A stretch of DNA of 64,000 nucleotides from positions 13,138 through 77,137 of the forward strand of contig CAYGRO010000002.1 in NCBI GenBank assembly GCA_964352335.1, read 5' to 3'. The DNA is from an uncultured Gammaproteobacteria bacterium. Its GTDB lineage: Bacteria; Patescibacteriota; Patescibacteriia; VMEV01; CAYQCH01. A program made the position numbers and the translations under genes. Positions 8,833-60,645 of the stretch are shown piece by piece (position 1 is the first letter of the stretch; each line of letters starts with the position of its first letter). The notes under the pieces are model-generated. The model made no database searches. It had not been told where the DNA came from and saw nothing but the letters and a program-made list of their open reading frames with translations.

Positions 8833-9171
8833 ATGATGTTACTATTTCGTCTTATTCTCAATACAGCGGCCTTACTTTTATTACCTTATATCATTAGCGG
8901 GATACAAGTAGAAGGGGTCTATACGGCATTTATTTCAGCCATTATTTTGGGATTATTAAATATTAGTATTCGTCCTTTAGTAAAACTACTCACATTGCCA
9001 ATTAGTATTTTAACTCTTGGTTTATTTGCACTAATAATTAATGCACTATTCTTCTGGTTTGTTGCAAGCTTTGTCGATGGGTTTTCTGTAGTTGGTTTTT
9101 GGCCAGCATTTTTAGGTGCTCTTATTATGAGCATTGTTAGTTGGCTTACAAATCAATTACTAAAGTCTTAG
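8833..9171 (+). CDS. small 4-TM membrane protein, DUF360 / phage holin 4-like family
   Basis: 112 aa with four hydrophobic helices. Overall resemblance to YvlD/DUF360 proteins. Confidence 0.5.
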   Translation: MMLLFRLILNTAALLLLPYIISGIQVEGVYTAFISAIILGLLNISIRPLVKLLTLPISILTLGLFALIINALFFWFVASFVDGFSVVGFWPAFLGALIMSIVSWLTNQLLKS

Positions 9172-29565: not shown

Positions 29566-30852
29566 TTAGTTTAAAGAGATTTCAGTTTTCCCATTCATAT
29601 AGGCTCTAAGAGCTTGTGGAATAGAAATGCTTCCATCTTCTTTTTGGTGATTTTCCAATAATGGGATCAAAATTCTAGGGCTAGCAATAAGTGTATTATT
29701 CAATGTATGACAATACTGTTTTTCATCACCATCTTTATAGCGAATATTAGATCGTCTAGCTTGCCAGTCACCGAGGTAGGAAGCTGAATGGGTTTCTCCA
29801 TAAGATTGACGAGAAGGCATCCAACATTCAATATCAAACATTTCTTTTTTTCCGGCTCCCATATCCCCTGTTGCAATTTGTAATACTCGATAAGGAAGTT
29901 CTAATGAAGCCAAAAAGTCTTCCGCGTTTTTTAAGATTTCACGCAACATTTCTCTACCGGCTTTTTCATCTGCTTTCATGAAAATAACTTGTTCTACTTT
30001 TGTAAATTGCTTGATGCGATAAAGTCCTTTTGTATCTTTTCCGTAACTTCCAACTTCTGTTCTAAAACAATTTGTCATTGCGCAATATTTAAGTGGAAGT
30101 TTGTCAATATCAAGAAATTCATTTGAATGGTATCCAAGTAGTGTAACTTCTGAAGTACCGATTAAATACAACGGTGGTTCATCTAAATCCTTACGTTGAT
30201 CATATATTTTGAATGTTTCATCTTCTGCAAATGGAAAATGACCAGAACCTTCAAAGTGTTCACGCTTAGCCATTACTGGCATATCTAATTGAGTAAATCC
30301 TCGTTCAGTAAGAAAATCTAAAGCGTAATTTACAAGTGCTCTTTGCAATTGTGCTGCTTCATTTTTCAAAACATAGCCACGAGTCCCCATTAACTTTACC
30401 CCACGTTCGATGTCAATAATATCTAAAGCTGTTCCAAGCTCTATATGATCTTTAGGCTCAAAGCTAAACTGAGTTGGCTCTCCAACGGTTTTTATTACTG
30501 TATTTGCTTCTTCACCTCCAATAGGTGCTTCTTCAACTGGGATTTGTGGTACAAGTAACATTAATTCGTTAAATCTTGCTTCTACTGCACCTAATTCATC
30601 TTTTATTGCATGAGCTTGATCCGAAATTGTTTTCATTTCTGCAACAAGCGTCTTTTTTTCATCTGGTGATGCTTGAGCAATTTTGTCTGAAGCTTGATTT
30701 TGTTGAGCTCTAAATTCTTCATGTTGAGTAATTAGTTCACGTCTTTTTTCATCAATTTGAAGAAGTTCATCTAGATTAAGATCTATTTGTTTGTTTTTAA
30801 TAGCGGTTTTGACTAAATCTACGTTTTCTCGGATGAATTTACTGTCTAACAT
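29566..30852 (-). CDS. serS: seryl-tRNA synthetase
   Basis: N-terminal coiled-coil arm and class II core motifs (FRTEVGSYGKDTKGLYRIKQF...). 428 aa. Confidence 0.95.
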   Translation of the reverse strand: MLDSKFIRENVDLVKTAIKNKQIDLNLDELLQIDEKRRELITQHEEFRAQQNQASDKIAQASPDEKKTLVAEMKTISDQAHAIKDELGAVEARFNELMLLVPQIPVEEAPIGGEEANTVIKTVGEPTQFSFEPKDHIELGTALDIIDIERGVKLMGTRGYVLKNEAAQLQRALVNYALDFLTERGFTQLDMPVMAKREHFEGSGHFPFAEDETFKIYDQRKDLDEPPLYLIGTSEVTLLGYHSNEFLDIDKLPLKYCAMTNCFRTEVGSYGKDTKGLYRIKQFTKVEQVIFMKADEKAGREMLREILKNAEDFLASLELPYRVLQIATGDMGAGKKEMFDIECWMPSRQSYGETHSASYLGDWQARRSNIRYKDGDEKQYCHTLNNTLIASPRILIPLLENHQKEDGSISIPQALRAYMNGKTEISLN

Positions 30853-30936
30853 ATCGGTCTATTATGCTAAAAACAGGGATTTTGATCCCTTTTAATGATA
30901 GAAATATACCAAAATTCAGTGTTTTTGTCCAAGATA

Positions 30937-30965
30937 TTGACAAAAGCTTGATTTTATGATAATTT
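30937..30965 (+). promoter_or_regulatory. sigma70-like promoter for the GC-rich gene
   Basis: TTGACA at 30937-30942, a 17-nt spacer, then TAATTT at 30960-30965. AAGGAG Shine-Dalgarno at 31000-31005, 6 nt before the GTG at 31012. Confidence 0.4.
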
Positions 30966-31011
30966 CGGCATTCTGGCACATACGTTTTGTGTCATAACAA
31001 AGGAGTGTTCC

Positions 31012-31632
31012 GTGAAGAAGTTCCCAATTGTGATTTTGTTGTTGTTCGCTTTCGTCATGCCCTGTATGGCGCAACAGGACAACGACAAGAAGAACACGAT
31101 GGCCACGCCGAAGGTCGACGAGCCCGCCAACCTGGCGACCCAAGTCGAGATCCTGAAGGCCAAGCTCGAGCGCGAGCAGCTTTTGACCCAGATCGCAGTC
31201 AAGCGGTCGAAGGAGCACGAGCAGCGTCTGCTGAACTTGCTCAAGCGCGTCAAGGCGATCGTCGCTGAGAACGAGAAGCTCAAGCTCCAGAACAAGGCGC
31301 TCGCCGAGCGGGTCGCAAGGAGCAAGCCTCCTATCGAGAATCCCACGGAGAAGAAGCAGGTGACCTCGAGCAAGCCCATCATCAAGGTCGTCGGTGAACC
31401 TCATCGGGTGACTGATCACGTGGCGCTGGTCGTCAACATCAAGGGCGCCAACTCCGGCGTCAAGGCTTGGTGGCATGGGACCGGCATGAAGAAGGCTATG
31501 CTTCTCAAGCTCAAGCAAGAGAAGAACGGTCACTTCTCGCTTCTCGTTGACAAGCCAACGAAGGAGCTCACGGTCTACATCAAGGCCGTCAATGGGAAGG
31601 AGAACACAACGCTCGCCATCCCGATCAAGTAG
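31012..31632 (+). CDS. secreted Lys/Glu-rich coiled-coil protein encoded by a GC-rich island
   Basis: GTG start after a strong SD. Signal peptide MKKFPIVILLLFAFVMPCMAQQ. Codons are GC-ending (AAG, GAG, CTC, GCC) and the line at 31081-31140 counts 38/60 GC, against 19/60 in the flank at 30841-30900. No homolog recognised. Confidence 0.6.
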   Translation: MKKFPIVILLLFAFVMPCMAQQDNDKKNTMATPKVDEPANLATQVEILKAKLEREQLLTQIAVKRSKEHEQRLLNLLKRVKAIVAENEKLKLQNKALAERVARSKPPIENPTEKKQVTSSKPIIKVVGEPHRVTDHVALVVNIKGANSGVKAWWHGTGMKKAMLLKLKQEKNGHFSLLVDKPTKELTVYIKAVNGKENTTLAIPIK

Positions 31633-31639
31633 CTGGCCC

Positions 31640-31700
31640 CCGCCGGCAAGAGACCCGTGCTGGCAGATCGCTCTATGAGTGGTTTGCTGGCACGGGTCTT
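31640..31700 (+). terminator. stem-loop at the 3' end of the GC-rich gene
   Basis: AGACCCGTGC...GCACGGGTCT 10-bp stem with a 29-nt loop, followed by TTTCAATTT. Terminator-like but the U-tract is weak. Confidence 0.35.
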
Positions 31701-31714
31701 TCAATTTGAAAAAA

Positions 31715-32140
31715 TTAGTTTGCTTGTTCTTCTTTTAATTTACTGGATTTATACAATTCTGGGTGAAATGGTTTTAATCGAATGACTGAAGCATGTATAG
31801 ATCTTTTTTGTAATTCATCATTTAATTTATCCACAAAGGCATTTTGATCATAACCTAAGGCGATAATATCAGGTCGAACCTCTTCAATAATTTTATACTT
31901 ATCTTCTATATATCCTAAATGGACTTGATCAACAGCTTTTGATTGAGCGACATGCCCAGCTCTAGTTGTTTCATTTTGATCAGGTAAATTTCCTTTCACT
32001 TGTTGAACTGTTTCGTCTCTAGCAACAACAATATGTAATTCATCCCCTAATTTTTTTGCTTGCTCGAAAAAATCCAGATGTCCTGGGTGTAAAATATCGA
32101 ATGTTCCAAATGCAAGAACTTTTTTCATAGAATTATTCAT
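31715..32140 (-). CDS. cytidylyltransferase-like nucleotidyltransferase (HxGH family)
   Basis: FGTFDILHPGHLDFF is the (T/H)xGH motif of the TagD/CoaD/FMN-adenylyltransferase superfamily. 141 aa. Confidence 0.6.
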   Translation of the reverse strand: MNNSMKKVLAFGTFDILHPGHLDFFEQAKKLGDELHIVVARDETVQQVKGNLPDQNETTRAGHVAQSKAVDQVHLGYIEDKYKIIEEVRPDIIALGYDQNAFVDKLNDELQKRSIHASVIRLKPFHPELYKSSKLKEEQAN

Positions 32141-37696: not shown

Positions 37697-38782
37697 CTAA
37701 CGAATCATTGTTTCTTGTTGAGTTGAAGCTAATATAACTTCACTCATTGCTTCTATGTCTTCTAAAATAATCCCTGTGCCACGTACAGCACATGTAGCAG
37801 GATCATCAGCTATTTGTACCGGAATACTTAAGGCTTCTGCGAGAGCCTGGTCTAATCCTTTTAATAAAGAACCAGCTCCAAATAATGTAATTCCACGTTC
37901 ATAAATATCCGCAACTAATTCAGGTGGTGTTCCTTCTAATGTTGCTTTCACATTATCAATGAAAAACTTAAGAGAGCGTGAAATCGCTTGTCGAATTTGA
38001 GCATCAGACACGGTGACTTCTCTTGGTAATCCAGAAATAAGATTTCTCCCTCTCACCTCCATCGATAATGATTCAGCTAAAGGAATAGCAGATCCAATCT
38101 TTGTTTTGGCTGCTTCCGCCATATGTGAACCTAAAAGGATATTGAATTCATGTCTGGCAAATTGAATGATGTCATTATCAAATTGCTTACTAGACATTTG
38201 TAAACTTTTCCAAGTTACCACCCCGCTTAAAGAAATAACAGCAATTTCAATTCTACCTCCACCAATATCAATAACCATTGTTCCATTTGGTTCTTGAATA
38301 GGGATTCTTGCACCAATTGCTCCCGCTAAAATTTGCTCTGTTAATAACACTTCGCGTGCCCCAGCTCCTAATACAGCATCTTCAACAGCTTTTTTTTCTA
38401 CCTCAGTTAAATCCATTGGAATAGCAACAACAACTCGTGGCCTTGGTAAAATATTGAAGTTTTCTGCGTGAATTTTATCAATGAAAAATCGGATCATTTT
38501 TTCGCATACTTCAAAATCAGAAATAATCCCCTGTAATAGAGGTGAAACAACGGTGATATGTGGAGGGGTTTTCCCCAACATGGCTTCTGCTTCGCTTCCT
38601 ACAGCGATAATTTGATTTGTTTTTGTATTCAATGCAACGACAGATGGCTCATCAATCACAATACCGCGATCTTTTACATAAATACGGGTATTTGATGTAC
38701 CTAGATCGATACCAATGTCTTTAGAAAATCTACCAAGGAATTTATTGATCATAGAAAAAAAGCGTAAATTCAGCGTATACAA
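37697..38782 (-). CDS. mreB: rod shape-determining protein MreB
   Basis: DIGIDLGTSNTRIYVKDRGIVIDEPSVVA phosphate-1 motif and actin-fold motifs (DIGGGRIEIAV). Confidence 0.9.
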   Translation of the reverse strand: MYTLNLRFFSMINKFLGRFSKDIGIDLGTSNTRIYVKDRGIVIDEPSVVALNTKTNQIIAVGSEAEAMLGKTPPHITVVSPLLQGIISDFEVCEKMIRFFIDKIHAENFNILPRPRVVVAIPMDLTEVEKKAVEDAVLGAGAREVLLTEQILAGAIGARIPIQEPNGTMVIDIGGGRIEIAVISLSGVVTWKSLQMSSKQFDNDIIQFARHEFNILLGSHMAEAAKTKIGSAIPLAESLSMEVRGRNLISGLPREVTVSDAQIRQAISRSLKFFIDNVKATLEGTPPELVADIYERGITLFGAGSLLKGLDQALAEALSIPVQIADDPATCAVRGTGIILEDIEAMSEVILASTQQETMIR

Positions 38783-41604: not shown

Positions 41605-42592
41605 AAGACTCGAGTTGAAGTCTTAGATTAGTACTTGTCGTGATTTGAAATAAAATATCTGAGAGCTGATCTTGTGCAGTAATAATTTTTTCATCAGTAA
41701 GGTTCTCAAACTGTAAACCAGAAAGCTCCGTGAAGAATAAGAGATCTGTTCTTTGTAATTTTAGCATAAGTAAGTCTCTTAGGAGTACTTTCCATAATTC
41801 AATTCTCTCATTCCATATTTTTTTTTGTTCACTAGGAGTCTTTTTTTTCTCTTTAAATAACGTTTCAATAATCTTTAGTCGTTTTCCAGGAGTCGTAGAG
41901 ATAAATTGAATAAAAAGCTCTCTTTCTTCGTTGAGTGATGATAATGCTGTTTCATCATGAACGAATTCTTGATAATTCCCTGGTAATTGTCTCGATTTTT
42001 GCCATAATTTTAGATCACCAGGATATTCATCTGGTGAAATTGCAGTAAATTCTATGACAGAACAACGCGAAATAATGGTTTTAGGTAATCGTGCAGGATA
42101 GCGAGAGAGTAGAAAAATGGCACAAGAAGCGGGTGGCTCTTCTAATGTTTTTAATAAAGCATTGCTTGCTCCATTCGACATTAAATCAGCATCATCAATG
42201 ACAAGATACTTTCGTTCCCCCATAACAGCAGATCTATAGGATTGTTGAATAGCAGTTCTTATCAATTCAACTGATAGATTTTGCTTGTCTTCTGGTTTAG
42301 CCACAAATAAGACATCTGGATGAGATCCTTGAAGAATCATTTTACAAGAATGACATTGTTCACAAGCGAGCTTATTAGTTGTTTGTTCTCCACCAAAAAG
42401 TGAATCTGAGGCGTCTTGAGTACAGAGAAACGACTGAATGAGCGCTGAAACTACTGTTCGTTTCCCTATTCTGGCTGGACCGCTAAATAAATAGCTCTGA
42501 CCTAGTGAGTTTTGGTCATGCAGATTTTGAAAATAGGAGATGATTTTGCTATGGCCAATGAGCTCAGGCATATGAAATCTATTTTGTAGCAA
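41588..42592 (-). CDS. holB: DNA polymerase III subunit delta'
   Basis: GQSYLFSGPARIGKRT P-loop-like region. Zinc-module cysteines CEQCHSC. SRC-like SRCSVIEF segment. Confidence 0.75.
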   Translation of the reverse strand: MLQNRFHMPELIGHSKIISYFQNLHDQNSLGQSYLFSGPARIGKRTVVSALIQSFLCTQDASDSLFGGEQTTNKLACEQCHSCKMILQGSHPDVLFVAKPEDKQNLSVELIRTAIQQSYRSAVMGERKYLVIDDADLMSNGASNALLKTLEEPPASCAIFLLSRYPARLPKTIISRCSVIEFTAISPDEYPGDLKLWQKSRQLPGNYQEFVHDETALSSLNEERELFIQFISTTPGKRLKIIETLFKEKKKTPSEQKKIWNERIELWKVLLRDLLMLKLQRTDLLFFTELSGLQFENLTDEKIITAQDQLSDILFQITTSTNLRLQLESFALHV

Positions 42593-43592
42593 GGACAGAT
42601 CGTTTATAAGAGTCGAGGTTTTCTAAAGCAATACCAGTACCACGTGCCACACAAAGTAATGAGTCATCAGCAACATAGCCTGAAACACCCGTTGCACGAG
42701 TGAATAATTTATCGATATTTCGTAGAAGACTAGATCCCCCAGAAAAAATCATTCCTTTATCCATGACATCTGCTGATAATTCTGGTGGAGTTTTTTGTAA
42801 AACATCTTTTGTCGCTTGAATAATCCCTTCTAATTGAGGTTGAATCGCTTCTGTAATATCGTCTGAACTAATTCTAATTGTTTTTGGCAATCCTGTAATC
42901 ATATCTCGCCCTCGAACATCCGTATAAAGTTTGTCATCTAAATACAAAGCTGATCCAATCTTAATCTTAACTTGTTCTGCTGTTTGCTCCCCTACAGCTA
43001 ATCCATATTTTTTTCTCAAATGTTCTGAAACAGCTTGGTCTAATTTATTTCCACCAATACGCACCGATGTTGATGCTACAATTCCACCAAGAGAAATGAC
43101 CGCAATTTCGGCAGTTCCACCACCAATGTCGACAATCATATGACCAGATGCACCACCAATAGGGATATTTGCTCCAATAGCGGCAGCTACGGGTTCTTTG
43201 ATAATATAAGCGGCTTTGGCTCCAGCAGCGATGGTCGCATCGATAACAGCACGTCTTTCTGTAGAAGTAATTCCAGCAGGAACAGCCACCATTACTTCGG
43301 GACGCAAAAATCGTAAACCACCTAAAGCTTTGTTAATAAAGTATCGTAACATCGCTTCTGTCGTTTTATAATCAGCAATTACTCCATCTTTTAATGGACG
43401 AGAAGCAACAATTGTTTCTGGTGTTCGCCCAAGCATTTCTTTGGCTTCAGCACCAACAGCTAGAACTTTTTTATCTAATGTTGAAATGGCAACAACAGAT
43501 GGTTCATTAATAACTATTCCACGTTTAGGGATATACACCAAAACATTAGTTGTACCAAGATCAATTCCAATTTTTTTCACGAATAATGACAT
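42579..43592 (-). CDS. MreB-like actin homolog (second paralog)
   Basis: KIGIDLGTTNVLVYIPKRGIVINEPSVVA and DIGGGTAEIAV motifs. 337 aa. Confidence 0.8.
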   Translation of the reverse strand: MSLFVKKIGIDLGTTNVLVYIPKRGIVINEPSVVAISTLDKKVLAVGAEAKEMLGRTPETIVASRPLKDGVIADYKTTEAMLRYFINKALGGLRFLRPEVMVAVPAGITSTERRAVIDATIAAGAKAAYIIKEPVAAAIGANIPIGGASGHMIVDIGGGTAEIAVISLGGIVASTSVRIGGNKLDQAVSEHLRKKYGLAVGEQTAEQVKIKIGSALYLDDKLYTDVRGRDMITGLPKTIRISSDDITEAIQPQLEGIIQATKDVLQKTPPELSADVMDKGMIFSGGSSLLRNIDKLFTRATGVSGYVADDSLLCVARGTGIALENLDSYKRSVLATK

Positions 43593-55412: not shown

Positions 55413-55880
55413 ATGAAATATTCCAGATTTATAATAAGCAATTTTAAAGGTATTGATGAAATCACAATCGATTTTTCGAACAATCGAGTAATAACACTAG
55501 TTGGCCTCAATGAGAGTGGGAAAACAACCATAATGGAGGCTATCCACTTGTTTTATAAAATGCTTAAGGGCGACGAACCAAGTGAAAGTGAACTAAAAAC
55601 ATTGCGTCCGAAGGGGGCAGGCTTCACTGGTAACATCAAAATAACAGGCGAATTGGTTTTAGAAGAAATTGATAAGAAAAAAATCAATAAATATTGGAAA
55701 CATGATCTTAACTTATCTGGTTGGTGGATCTTAGTCCCATTTGTAAACTCTCTTTTATGGCTCGGGGGGTTCTTTTTAAGAGGTATCTCAGGCGAAAATA
55801 AGTATGGCCAACCACCAACAAATGATACATCACTCACTGAAGCATTATTTGCGCCACAACCATTACCTCAAACGAAATAA
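55413..55880 (+). pseudogene. N-terminal fragment of an OLD/ABC-type (AAA_15/AAA_21-like) ATPase; the C-terminal half is not ATPase-like and the gene appears truncated
   Basis: The first about 95 aa (RFIISNFKGIDEITIDFSNNRVITLVGLNESGKTTIMEAI) match the P-loop N-terminus of OLD/RecF-like ATPases. No Walker B or signature motif follows. The ORF stops at the uvrB stop codon. Confidence 0.5.
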
Positions 55881-57905: not shown

Positions 57906-58045
57906 GGATAGATCTGATTCAAAACCAGAGCGTATGTTTGTTAAACTTAGTTTATACCTAGTACTTTACCACCCCAGTTTGGCGAAGCCAAACTACCCCT
58001 CCTAATCTAGCCCTCGGCCATGAGCTCGGGCCGAATGGGAGGGGT

Positions 58046-58423
58046 ATGTATGTTTATATGTATTTACATAATGATTCGTCTTCAAAACTGTTAAGAAAAA
58101 CAACAAGAAACAATGCTACAAATAGTGAACGACTATTATGGTCAAAACTTCGGCGAAAACAGTTAGGTGGTTTTAAATTTAGAAGAAATCATCAAATCCT
58201 GAGATATTATGTTGATTTCTATTGTCCATCAGCTCGCTTAGCAATTGAAGTAGATGGAAAGATTCATGAGAATCCACAAAACAAATTATATGATCAAATA
58301 AGAGATAAAGAAATTAGGACGTTAAACATCAATATTCTTCGTTTTAGCAACGATGATATTACACAAAACACACAACAAGTACTTGAAATAATCCTAAAGA
58401 ATCTCACTACTTCCCCCTACTAA
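58046..58423 (+). CDS. DUF559 (Vsr-like endonuclease fold) domain protein
   Basis: ERLLWSKLRRKQLGGFKFRRNHQILRYYVDFYCPSARLAIEVDGKIHE...YDQIRDKEIRTLNINILRFSNDDI matches the DUF559 signature. The true start may be an internal Met. Confidence 0.7.
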   Translation: MYVYMYLHNDSSSKLLRKTTRNNATNSERLLWSKLRRKQLGGFKFRRNHQILRYYVDFYCPSARLAIEVDGKIHENPQNKLYDQIRDKEIRTLNINILRFSNDDITQNTQQVLEIILKNLTTSPY

Positions 58424-58448
58424 GTTAGGAGGGGGCTAGGGGGTGGTA

Positions 58449-59054
58449 CTACTCCCACTCCTCATAAAACCGCTCCAAAAACCCTTCCATATAATCATGC
58501 CTTTCCTTTGCCATTTGTTTACCAGTCTCCGTATTCATCAAATCTTTCAACTTAAGTAATTTGTCATAAAAATGTTGAATAGAATGTTTCCCTTCTTTAT
58601 CATTTGGATCATAAATCGGTCTTCCCATTTTCGCCCCTGTTGCAAAACATCGCGCAATACCAATCGCACCTATGGCTTCCAGCCTATCTGCATCTTGAAC
58701 AATTTTACCTTCTTTAGATTTCATTGGTCCTGCATTTTTTGAATAAGAAATGGTTGAAACAATTTCAACAACTTCATGAATCAATTCAGGTTCTAGATTC
58801 AATGACCCTAACCATTCTCTTGTCATTTTTGGCCCAATAGAGTAATCCCCTCCATGGTTTTTATGATCAGCAATATCATGAAGCAAGGCAGCCAGTTCTA
58901 CCACAAAAAGATTTACATCAATTTCGTTTTCTGCAATTTGCATTGCATTTTTTCTAACAAGATGAATATGATACCAATCATGCCCCGAGCTTTCGCCAGC
59001 AAGTGTGTCTTGAACAAATTGTTCTGTTTTACTTATAACTTCGGTTGGAGACAT
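58449..59054 (-). CDS. HD-domain phosphohydrolase
   Basis: HDWYH...LHDIADHK is the H...HD...D metal-binding pattern. 201 aa. Coupled to the upstream lpd by a stop-1nt-ATG junction. Confidence 0.75.
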   Translation of the reverse strand: MSPTEVISKTEQFVQDTLAGESSGHDWYHIHLVRKNAMQIAENEIDVNLFVVELAALLHDIADHKNHGGDYSIGPKMTREWLGSLNLEPELIHEVVEIVSTISYSKNAGPMKSKEGKIVQDADRLEAIGAIGIARCFATGAKMGRPIYDPNDKEGKHSIQHFYDKLLKLKDLMNTETGKQMAKERHDYMEGFLERFYEEWE

Positions 59055-59055
59055 A

Positions 59056-60417
59056 CTAAAATTGTGCCAATGCTCGATGTATTACTTCTGGTAAAGCAGG
59101 ATGAACATGAATTGTATTAACAATTTCACTGATTTTCCCTTTTCTACGCATCACTGGAAGAACTTCATGAATTAATGTAGAAGCTTCTGGACCGAGTATA
59201 TGGCAACCTAAAATTGTTTCTCCTTTTTCATCAGCCAGCACTTTTACAAAAGATGTTTCATCTCTAAATGCCATTCCCATTCCAGTATTTTTATAATCAT
59301 AACGAGAGACTTTGTATTTAACGCCTGCTTCTTTTAATTCTTGTTCTGTTTTACCAACCCCAGCCATTTGTGGCGAAGTAAAGACAGCATATGGCATGGC
59401 GGTATAATCAATTTTAGATTTTTTTGGGAGGAATAGATTTTTCACAATCCCTTCTGCTTCTAAATTTGCCGAATGTTTAAAAAAGTATTTACCAGCAATA
59501 TCCCCCAATGCCCACACACCTGGCACAGAAGTCTCTAAATAATCATTATTTGTGATATAGCCACGATCTGTTAAGTCATACCCAACTTCTTTTAACTTTA
59601 ACGTATCTGTATTCGGCTTTCTCCCAACAACAACCAATAATTGATCTGACGTAATAGTAGATTTCTTTTTCGTTGCAAGATTTTCAACTTGTACTTTGAT
59701 CTTCCCCTTCACCTTGCTTACACTCATCGCATTTGAATTGAGCAATACTTTATGTTTTTTAGAAAACTCTTCTGTAAAGGTTTTTGAGATATCTTGATCA
59801 GTATTCTTTAACATTTGATCCCCCCTTTCAATAATTGTGACCTTTGATCCTAATGCCCCAAAAAAATGAGACAATTCTGCAGAAATATATCCACCACCAA
59901 TAACGGTCAACGTTTTTGGAAGCTTTTTCAGTCGTAAAGCTTCTTTACTTGTGAGGTAATCTACTTTATCTAAACCAGGAATAGGTGGTACAAATGGCCG
60001 ACCTCCTGCGGCAATAATAATTTTATCGGCAGTAATTGTTTCTTTTCCAACTTGAATAACTTTTTTATCGATAAACTTTGCCTTCTTTTGAAAAACCGTA
60101 ATATTTGGATTCTGCTTATTCCCTGCCAATACATTTTTTGCATCTTGATCAACTGTTTTTGAAACTCGCTCAATAAGTTCAGAGAATTTCACCCCATTGT
60201 ATTTAGCTTTGATTGAATACTTACTGGCATTCTTGATTGATTCAACAATATCAGCCGCATGAATCAGCATTTTTGAAGGAATACACCCACGATTCAAACA
60301 AGTCCCCCCAAATGGCCCCGAATCCACCACAGCAACCTTCCACCCCTGAGCAGCCGCCGTAGAAGACACCGTCAATCCAGACCCCGCCCCAATAACAATC
60401 AAATCAAATTTTTTCAT
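59056..60417 (-). CDS. FAD-dependent pyridine nucleotide-disulfide oxidoreductase (dihydrolipoyl dehydrogenase-like)
   Basis: IVIGAGSGL FAD fold. GGTCLNRGCIPSK redox-active disulfide. C-terminal dimerisation domain ending with HPALPE. The start is taken at MKKFD (ATG at 60415-60417); the longer track ORF reads through upstream palindromic DNA. Confidence 0.85.
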   Translation of the reverse strand: MKKFDLIVIGAGSGLTVSSTAAAQGWKVAVVDSGPFGGTCLNRGCIPSKMLIHAADIVESIKNASKYSIKAKYNGVKFSELIERVSKTVDQDAKNVLAGNKQNPNITVFQKKAKFIDKKVIQVGKETITADKIIIAAGGRPFVPPIPGLDKVDYLTSKEALRLKKLPKTLTVIGGGYISAELSHFFGALGSKVTIIERGDQMLKNTDQDISKTFTEEFSKKHKVLLNSNAMSVSKVKGKIKVQVENLATKKKSTITSDQLLVVVGRKPNTDTLKLKEVGYDLTDRGYITNNDYLETSVPGVWALGDIAGKYFFKHSANLEAEGIVKNLFLPKKSKIDYTAMPYAVFTSPQMAGVGKTEQELKEAGVKYKVSRYDYKNTGMGMAFRDETSFVKVLADEKGETILGCHILGPEASTLIHEVLPVMRRKGKISEIVNTIHVHPALPEVIHRALAQF

Positions 60418-60477
60418 AAATAACCCAAAATTAAGGTTCAAACCCTCACTAGCATTGTACCACGAATGGCTCCCCAC

Positions 60478-60548
60478 CCCCTTGTCATTCCTGCGCAGGC
60501 AGGAATCTCCCGATATTGATGAGATACCCGCCTGCGCGGGCATGACAA
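60478..60548. repeat. GC-rich palindromic element with TTGTCATT...ATGACAA termini (second copy of the family)
   Basis: CTTGTCATTCCTGCGCAGGCAGGAATCTCCCGATATTGATGAGATACCCGCCTGCGCGGGCATGACAAGG. Two internal short hairpins, and the outer arms are inverted with 2-3 mismatches. Confidence 0.55.
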
Positions 60549-60645
60549 GGATTTATATCGAGCAACTTTATGAAACAATAATCAACCCAACAAAATCAAA
60601 AACCCTCCTCAAAACAAGAAGGGTTAATTGATCAAGAAAATTCAA

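Follow-up and report, generated by a model that had tools for sequence, protein, structure and literature searches.

The 64-kb stretch of contig CAYGRO010000002.1 analyzed here (the window) contains a short island, at positions 31012–31700, whose base composition, codon usage and expression signals set it apart from the surrounding DNA. The island holds a single gene for a 206-residue protein with a signal peptide, located between a cytidylyltransferase gene and serS, and on balance it is probably a complete foreign bacterial expression cassette that was acquired very recently from an unsampled donor. A preliminary description of this DNA, made from its letters alone, had offered two explanations, a recent horizontal acquisition and a chimeric or contaminated assembly. 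The former is now the better supported, as the cassette is complete and coherent and carries a ribosome-binding site (RBS) and a terminator unlike those of the host, and a chimera needs two precise misjoins. Horizontal gene transfer (HGT) is favored because the codons, RBS and terminator are coherently foreign, and because the insert is intact, disrupts nothing and occupies a slot that varies among relatives.

The island has a guanine plus cytosine (GC) content of 57.6%, compared with a mean of 35.5% for the whole window, a measured value that replaces the background of about 32% given initially. Relative to 690-nt windows outside the island (mean 0.353, sd 0.019, maximum 0.416), the island stands at z = +11.5, and 500-nt blocks elsewhere in the 64 kb never exceed 0.414. 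The change is abrupt, with 200-nt windows at 0.30–0.39 until about position 31000, at 0.55–0.62 over 31000–31700 and at 0.28 from 31700. The value of about 63% first attributed to the island is true of its core, where 60-nt windows peak at 0.62–0.68, and not of its mean; the line counts reported with it (38/60 GC for 31081–31140 and 19/60 for 30841–30900) are exact. By segment, GC rises from 0.21 (promoter) through 0.46 (5′ untranslated region, UTR; 46 nt) to 0.58 (coding sequence of the mature protein). On the left, the foreign DNA begins somewhere in 30937–31000; on the right, it ends at 31701, with the stop codon of the cytidylyltransferase gene 14 nt further on.

The coding sequence of the orphan protein (31012–31632, plus strand) begins with GTG, contains a single stop and has GC contents of 0.55, 0.31 and 0.85 at codon positions 1, 2 and 3 (GC1, GC2 and GC3). 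The 54 other open reading frames (ORFs) of at least 100 residues in the window have GC3 values of 0.14–0.34. Following leave-one-out referencing to the host genes, the codon adaptation index (CAI) of the island gene is 0.28, compared with 0.68 ± 0.04 for the host (host minimum 0.58; z = −9.4). Sliding-window GC and codon adaptation, both put forward as checks in the preliminary description, together make up the compositional case for transfer (GC z = +11.5, GC3 of 0.85 against 0.14–0.34, CAI z = −9.4). The statement that codon usage in this gene is opposite to that of its neighbors is confirmed: Lys is encoded by AAG in 31 of 31 cases, against 81% AAA in the host, and the remaining choices include GAG (14 of 15), GTC (14 of 20), ATC (10 of 12) and TTC (4 of 4). 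This is not a scheme of one codon per amino acid, as GCT, CTT, CCT, GGT, CAA and CAT are also present as minor codons. The preference for G/C-ending codons is already present in the first codons of the gene; the lower value of the signal-peptide region, just 45% GC, stems from its Phe, Ile and Leu residues and not from host-like codons. The preferences for CTC, GTC, ATC, AAG, ACG and TCG were also weighed for the identity of the donor. These are common to many GC-rich lineages, and the donor is therefore not named from codons.

The reading of the island as a single-gene unit holds, with one plus-strand gene confined to the GC-rich stretch. That this 206-residue ORF is the real gene, as originally proposed, is supported by a Shine–Dalgarno (SD) sequence, a signal peptide, a strand-specific terminator and GC3 periodicity, all of which belong to the plus strand. 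The longest antisense ORF (262 residues; 30916–31704, minus strand) is rejected as a gene on codon-position GC. Its GC1/2/3 values are 0.77/0.34/0.53 for the whole ORF and 0.85/0.31/0.55 within 31012–31632, and the peak at position 1 is that of the antisense of a GC3-rich gene, in line with the earlier judgment that the minus-strand ORFs are artefacts. This frame stays free of stops since the gene avoids those sense codons, ending in A, whose reverse complements are stop codons. Its translation is a Leu/Asp/Arg-rich mirror of the Lys/Glu-rich sense protein and matches no Pfam family. The minus-strand ORF at 30954–31385 is an antisense artefact of the same type.

The expression signals of the gene are foreign in style too. 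The 5′ UTR (30966–31011, plus strand, 46% GC), in which the composition begins rising, carries AAGGAG at 31000–31005, placed 6 nt before the GTG start exactly as first read. This is the sole canonical SD (a match of at least 6 nt at proper spacing) among the 55 genes in the 64 kb. In only 2 of the 54 host genes do the 22 nt before the start contain a match of at least 5 nt to AAGGAGGT, in both cases poorly spaced. The host genes are thus essentially SD-less; the 22 nt upstream of them are rich in A/T and contain nothing resembling AGGAG (for example, serS, start 30852; lysS, start 33620; greA, start 34154). A subgroup of Parcubacteria has been reported to lack the anti-SD motif in its 16S rRNA (PMC9297842), and the SD-poor genes of this host are consistent with such a subgroup; the window itself carries no rRNA gene.

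A candidate sigma-70-type promoter is located at 30937–30965 on the plus strand, with TTGACA at 30937–30942, a 17-nt spacer and TG-a-TAATTT (−10 element at 30960–30965). The −35 hexamer is perfect, and the −10 element agrees with the consensus at 3 of 6 positions. The promoter first described here can be read in the sequence, but it is absent from the listing of the promoter scan because a −10 element with 3 of 6 positions falls under the threshold. The segment has a host-like composition (21% GC) and is back-to-back with a candidate serS promoter on the minus strand (30931–30903, TGGACA-17-TATATT), which the scan does list. Promoter-like sites occur in this AT-rich window at 66 per 20 kb, the same as the shuffle expectation. 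Since AT-rich DNA abounds in such sites, the plus-strand promoter could be fortuitous host DNA.

At the other end of the gene, the stem-loop noted at the outset is present and stronger than described. The RNA hairpin (31649–31701, plus strand) comprises 25 pairs (19 Watson–Crick, 6 G·U and no mismatches) and a 3-nt loop, is followed by UUUCAAUUUG, and was matched as terminator-like in a scan; it is likely an intrinsic terminator or a 3′ stabilizer. Its folding energy is −48.8 kcal/mol on the plus strand (z = −7.9) versus −29.8 kcal/mol on the minus strand, and it ranks as the most stable of 8524 70-nt folds over the window. All six imperfections are G·U on the plus strand, for which the chance is about (1/6)^6 for six random non-Watson–Crick positions, indicative of selection at the RNA level. 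The other strong hairpins of the host (57976–58045 and 60481–60550) are strand-symmetric DNA palindromes, unlike that of the island, and terminator-like matches in host DNA are near background (18 versus 11 ± 3.5 in 20 kb). Both the RBS and the terminator are un-host-like, and the expression cassette as a whole is foreign in style, beyond its codons.

A heptamer, CTGGCAC or CTGGCAG, also occurs three times in the untranslated parts of the island (30975–30992 and 31659–31690), once in the 5′ UTR as tTCTGGCACatacgTTTTG and once in each hairpin arm. The 5′ UTR copy loosely resembles a sigma-54 −24/−12 element (TGGCAC-N5-TTGC), with the −12 part mismatched; this is probably a coincidence.

The preliminary description had predicted a signal peptide, a Lys/Glu-rich coiled coil and a beta-rich C-terminal domain, and all three are borne out by hydropathy, heptad register and AlphaFold. 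The protein consists of a signal peptide (residues 1–20), a polar linker (21–37), a coiled coil (38–104), a Pro/Lys-rich linker (105–121) and an Fn3/Ig-like β-sandwich (122–206). The Sec-type signal peptide (31012–31071, plus strand), MKKFPIVILLLFAFVMPCMA followed by QQ, has a KK n-region, a hydrophobic core of 14–15 residues, Pro at −4, Cys at −3 and Ala at −1. The mean Kyte–Doolittle hydropathy of residues 4–20 is 2.58, and the protein contains no second hydrophobic segment. These features point to a Sec-dependent substrate of signal peptidase I, with cleavage predicted after CMA by the heuristic −3/−1 rule, which would leave an N-terminal Gln. The mature protein is basic (pI ~10.5, net charge +16). 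A search for the lipobox [LVI][ASTVI][GAS]C in the protein found none (Cys18 is found in VMPC, which places Pro at −1), which rules out a bacterial lipoprotein. A sortase-anchored M-like surface protein is ruled out by the absence of an LPXTG-like motif and by a C-terminus (...NTTLAIPIK) that has no hydrophobic tail, and a twin-arginine translocation (Tat) substrate by the absence of the Tat motif. The protein has neither a catalytic signature nor an anchor.

The AlphaFold model, predicted from the single sequence, has a mean predicted local distance difference test (pLDDT) score of 77 and contains a helix at residues 38–104 (pLDDT 83–96) and an eight-strand β domain at residues 123–205 (78–88). 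The predicted β domain superposes on known Ig, Fn3 or carbohydrate-binding module (CBM) folds. The heptad register is continuous through the 67 residues of the helix and closes in a canonical leucine zipper, with L73, V80, N87, N94 and V101 at the a positions and L76, I83, L90 and L97 at the d positions. Asn at a positions favors parallel dimers, and its presence at two a positions suggests that the protein would form a parallel dimer via the zipper. Residues 73–101 resemble bZIP or GCN4-like parallel dimeric zippers in that every d position is occupied by Leu or Ile and two of the a positions by Asn; in contrast to bZIP proteins, this is a predicted extracellular bacterial protein that has no basic DNA-binding region in the bZIP sense. 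Weak sequence matches to the coiled coils of Jun and NRBF2 (E 0.06–7) reflect coiled-coil composition only. The protein can also be compared with surface proteins that combine a coiled-coil stalk with Ig-like or Fn3 domains, such as the stalk-plus-Ig-like region of Paenibacillus ChiW (PDB 5gzt) and the M-like fibrillar adhesins of Gram-positive bacteria. This likeness is at the level of the fold only (~10% identity), and the island protein differs in being only 206 residues long, with no enzymatic or SLH domains and no LPXTG or other anchor. A role as an effector or adhesin, as first suggested, is plausible in that it fits the predicted architecture.

The initial statement that no homolog was recognized is upheld by searches of protein, Pfam, PDB, viral, metagenome, plasmid and phage collections. 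The full protein found no homolog in a word-indexed collection of 5.8 billion clusters, the β domain alone found nothing in the same index at E ≤10, and an exhaustive phmmer search of 1.84 billion representative proteins gave 0 matches at E ≤1e-3. Pattern and tblastn scans of viral and metagenome contigs, and tblastn searches of plasmids and phages, likewise found no homolog. PDB sequences returned only coiled-coil noise (best E = 0.27), and the best Pfam match (E = 0.057) is far below the gathering score. Rfam gave nothing at E ≤1 in the island on either strand and nothing at the gathering threshold in the window. Exact-sequence look-ups of the products of the island gene, serS and the cytidylyltransferase gene found no record. 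By blastp the gene has no paralog in the window, and the island has no k-mer of at least 17 nt in common with the rest of the window. The island protein would be the founding and sole member of a new sequence family, a coiled-coil stalk joined to an Ig-like module, made from common folds. A donor clade could not be assigned phylogenetically, since no homolog was found in the protein, viral, metagenome, plasmid and phage collections.

The host is a deep-branching patescibacterium (Candidate Phyla Radiation, CPR), as the best serS matches among 185,579 GTDB species genomes and JGI metagenomes are CPR-labelled and share 47–49% identity. The window has a housekeeping content that includes MacB/FtsX, Fmt, Def, PriA, ClpB, GltX, an M23 peptidase, FemAB, a Mur ligase, SerS, LysS and GreA, as well as PBP2, MreC, two MreB proteins, RseP, RRF, HolB, glycosyltransferases, a cyclophilin and UvrABC. 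The order greA-lysS-...-serS, all on one strand, is kept in about 15 distant CPR loci among the 160 fetched, in which the lysS–serS gap spans 58–3800 bp and holds 0–3 same-strand housekeeping genes (HD, RdgB-like, Nudix and similar). The check proposed initially, a search for the same gene between serS and the cytidylyltransferase gene in relatives, found it absent from these ~15 distant loci (serS identity 42–49%), none of which has an opposite-strand secreted gene in the gap. A comparable GC islet was also not seen in 1.46 Mb of related loci, where no 400-nt window lies more than 0.17 above the mean GC of its locus. The insert leaves its neighbors intact: the candidate serS promoter (30931–30903) is whole, and the cytidylyltransferase stop is beyond the hairpin.

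Several routes of insertion were considered and rejected. The ORFs of the window include no integrase, transposase, recombinase or phage module among their Pfam families, the 64 kb contain no transfer RNA (tRNA), transfer-messenger RNA or any Rfam family at threshold, and the flanking repeats of the island are short and at chance level. A classical genomic island or mobile element is therefore rejected on the absence of mobility genes, tRNA and convincing flanking repeats. A transposon or miniature inverted-repeat transposable element is rejected as there are no terminal inverted repeats; a direct repeat of 16 nt at 30752 and 31701, identical at 14 of the 16 positions, has a copy inside serS and was judged to be chance. 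Integron cassettes are similar in being single small ORF units with an imperfect inverted repeat directly 3′ and orphan or secreted cargo. However, the R″/R′ core sites (RYYYAAC and GTTRRRY) are absent on either strand at the island boundaries (30900–31020 and 31625–31725), and neither intI nor a recombinase is present in the window. Furthermore, the imperfections of the island hairpin are all G·U, at the RNA level, whereas attC has extrahelical bases on folded single-stranded DNA, and the island carries its own SD and promoter-like site.

Taken as a recent acquisition, the island suggests the following scheme. A cassette of ~735–765 bp (from ~30937 or 30966 to 31701), comprising a 5′ UTR with its SD, the coding sequence, an intrinsic terminator and possibly a promoter, would have entered, in reverse orientation, the variable intergenic slot that separates the cytidylyltransferase gene from serS. 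The donor would be an unsampled bacterium with a strong preference for G/C-ending codons. If the gene is expressed in this host, the product would be exported by Sec, cleaved after CMA and dimerized by the parallel leucine-zipper stalk. The dimer would present two basic Fn3/Ig-like modules extracellularly. It might serve in binding or adhesion, in soluble form or loosely attached, and would have affinity for anionic envelope polymers. Patescibacteria are documented recipients of HGT, although recent cross-phylum events are rare (PMC12455944).

The element would belong to a known kind, the compositionally atypical acquired ORFan islet, of which it is a rather extreme case. Single-gene genomic islets and ORFans are recognized by atypical GC and codon usage, in compositional HGT of the type studied by Lawrence and Ochman. 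Like these, the island makes an abrupt GC and codon break in one accessory gene amid conserved housekeeping genes, and its product is a protein of the secreted or surface type, with no assigned function and no homologs. It differs from the usual islets in that the contrast is extreme and unameliorated (GC3 of 0.85 versus 0.24) and that no donor, tRNA, integrase or repeat hallmarks accompany it. Additionally, its RBS type conflicts with the SD-less recipient, and its amino acids mismatch a high-GC donor.

Several of these observations weigh against a recent acquisition. A donor copy is expected for a recent, unameliorated transfer, yet no donor or homolog was found in any collection searched. 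The insertion bears no mark of an integrase or transposase, of a tRNA or attC site, or of a convincing target duplication. The cassette has its ends almost exactly at the promoter and the terminator and yet is unameliorated, which is suspiciously tidy. The closest relative of the host in the collections has a serS identity of ≤49%, hence there is no true empty site for comparison. The amino acid composition is a further difficulty. The protein has 15% Lys, a K/(K+R) of 0.82 and a GC2 of 0.31, which all lie within the range of the host or beyond it (host K/(K+R) 0.63). Among the ORFs of the fetched loci, those with GC3 of 0.7–0.8 have a mean K/(K+R) of 0.42 (maximum 0.70, n = 28), and those with GC3 of at least 0.8 have a mean of 0.32 (maximum 0.55) and a GC2 of 0.44–0.50 (n = 8). 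The gene is thus GC-rich at synonymous sites only, and its AT-genome-like amino acids do not fit well with a typical high-GC donor. The coiled coil accounts for part of the Lys richness, yet the β domain is Lys-rich too. The suggestion of a high-GC source consequently stands for the synonymous sites and not for the protein, whose Lys content, K/(K+R) and GC2 are atypical of high-GC genes. Possible sources of the discordance are a donor whose codon bias is decoupled from its amino acids, a lineage-specific, fast-evolving surface protein, or an artificial or recoded sequence.

The last of these leads to the rival that survives best, a technical artefact, in the form of a double chimeric join in a metagenome assembly, an error from contamination or polishing, or the insertion of a synthetic or recoded sequence. 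This is less likely than transfer, but it has to be taken seriously. GC3 of 0.85 beside 0.24 is extreme, unique and unameliorated, and host-like or AT-like amino acids combined with GC-richness at synonymous sites only are the signature expected of recoding. The cassette is textbook-ideal: TTGACA is perfect, the spacer measures 17 nt, AAGGAG is 6 nt from the start codon, and the hairpin is perfect and very long. The protein is fully orphan among ~15 billion proteins, and the fold of its β domain is unusually confident for an AlphaFold prediction from a single sequence. Moreover, there is no mobility signature, and no genome in the collections independently confirms the join. On the other hand, for a chimera, two junctions would have to be precise and lead back into the same genome with synteny preserved, and no k-mer of at least 17 nt is common to the island and the remaining window. 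Both junctions respect function, as the serS promoter is intact and the cytidylyltransferase stop is untouched. The six G·U pairs and zero mismatches of the hairpin look like RNA-level evolution and not design, and the codon usage is naturally heterogeneous, with GCT, CTT, CCT, GGT, CAA and CAT among its minor codons. As an artefact, the island would be a useful warning case for quality control of metagenome-assembled genomes, since a gene that looks perfect would pass gene-level checks.

A more specific form of acquisition is that the cassette was captured, via competence, from the basibiont of an episymbiotic Patescibacterium or from the mobilome of that basibiont, and that a host-type secreted adhesin is now used at the cell–cell interface. 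We regard this as a rather improbable scenario. DNA-scavenging competence machinery is typical of CPR bacteria. In a more exotic variant, the foreign segment would be transcript-shaped, extending from about the predicted transcription start (~30966) to the end of the terminator at 31701, and this would fit an RNA-mediated (reverse-transcribed) acquisition; the 46-nt 5′ UTR is too short for its rise in GC to be significant, which limits this variant. If capture from a basibiont is true, the codon signature and the sequence would point directly to an otherwise unknown host organism.

Much less likely is a native, vertically inherited gene whose GC3 is maintained under selection of an unusual kind, for example on the structure or stability of the mRNA, on translation speed, or for escape from an AT-targeting nuclease or silencer. 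The amino acids, GC1 (0.55) and GC2 (0.31) are within the host range, so that GC3 alone is deviant; the promoter segment is host-like at 21% GC, and the region is a core region with no mobility genes. Against this, every other gene in the window has a GC3 of ≤0.34, and codon selection does not explain a canonical SD in an SD-less genome. We know of no mechanism that would give 31 of 31 AAG and a GC3 of 0.85 in one gene of such a genome. Furthermore, no homolog from Patescibacteria was found among the 1.84 billion representatives, and the syntenic slot of the ~15 relatives does not contain the gene.

Where an AT-rich genome has a GC-rich patch, this is often a structured RNA. A structured non-coding RNA or the 262-residue minus-strand ORF as the functional element is nevertheless of almost negligible likelihood: the minus-strand ORF is the longer one and several 70-nt windows in the island fold at −26 to −30 kcal/mol, but such internal energies are as expected of a 60% GC sequence, the periodicity (GC3 of 0.85, one stop) fits plus frame 0 with the minus-strand peak at position 1, the SD, signal peptide and strand-specific terminator all agree on the plus strand, AlphaFold gives a confident fold for the plus-strand product, and neither an Rfam match at E ≤1 on either strand nor a Pfam family for the minus-strand ORF was found.

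Should the join be real, the island, read as a recently acquired cassette, would offer an unusually clean snapshot of cross-lineage transfer into a reduced CPR genome, complete and unameliorated. The acquired SD would then mismatch an SD-poor recipient, and the site is a cluster of core translation and cell-wall genes. Testable questions would follow on the expression of an SD-led, GC3-rich mRNA in such a host, on surface proteins obtained from partners, and on codon signatures that name the partner.

Additional features of the window were observed away from the island. The window is densely filled with protein genes. Two full-length MreB paralogs (37697–38782 and 42579–43592, both on the minus strand; Pfam E = 9e-124 and 1e-130) are present together with MreC and PBP2 in this ultra-small CPR genome. 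A 112-residue protein encoded at 8833–9171 (plus strand) gives a full-length match to Phage_holin_4_2 (E = 4e-32) and is located between a Na+/H+ exchanger gene and fmt, outside any phage context. Between uvrA and uvrB, an ORF of 155 residues (55413–55880, plus strand) matches just the N-terminal ~60 residues of AAA_15/AAA_23 ATPase domains. It has the highest GC3 (0.34) and lowest CAI (0.58) of the host genes and may be what is left, in truncated form, of a defense-type ATPase from an older acquisition.

A DUF559 (PF04480) endonuclease-like ORF of 125 residues (58046–58423, plus strand; E = 4.5e-30) is located between uvrB and an HD-domain gene. It is bracketed by GC-rich C/G tracts at 57976–58045 and 58415–58460 (ccacccc...tacccctcc / gggaggggt ... 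ttccccc...agggggtgg), which include a strand-symmetric hairpin of ~−38 kcal/mol, and together the ORF and tracts look like a small selfish or insertion-type module. Finally, a strand-symmetric, GC-rich palindrome of ~70 nt at 60481–60550 (cttgtcattcctgcgcaggcaggaatc...cccgcctgcgcgggcatgacaagg; −44 kcal/mol on both strands) resembles repetitive extragenic palindromic (REP) elements. It overlaps the 5′ end of a pyridine-nucleotide-disulphide oxidoreductase ORF (59056–60543, minus strand), and the true start of the oxidoreductase gene is therefore probably downstream of the palindrome.

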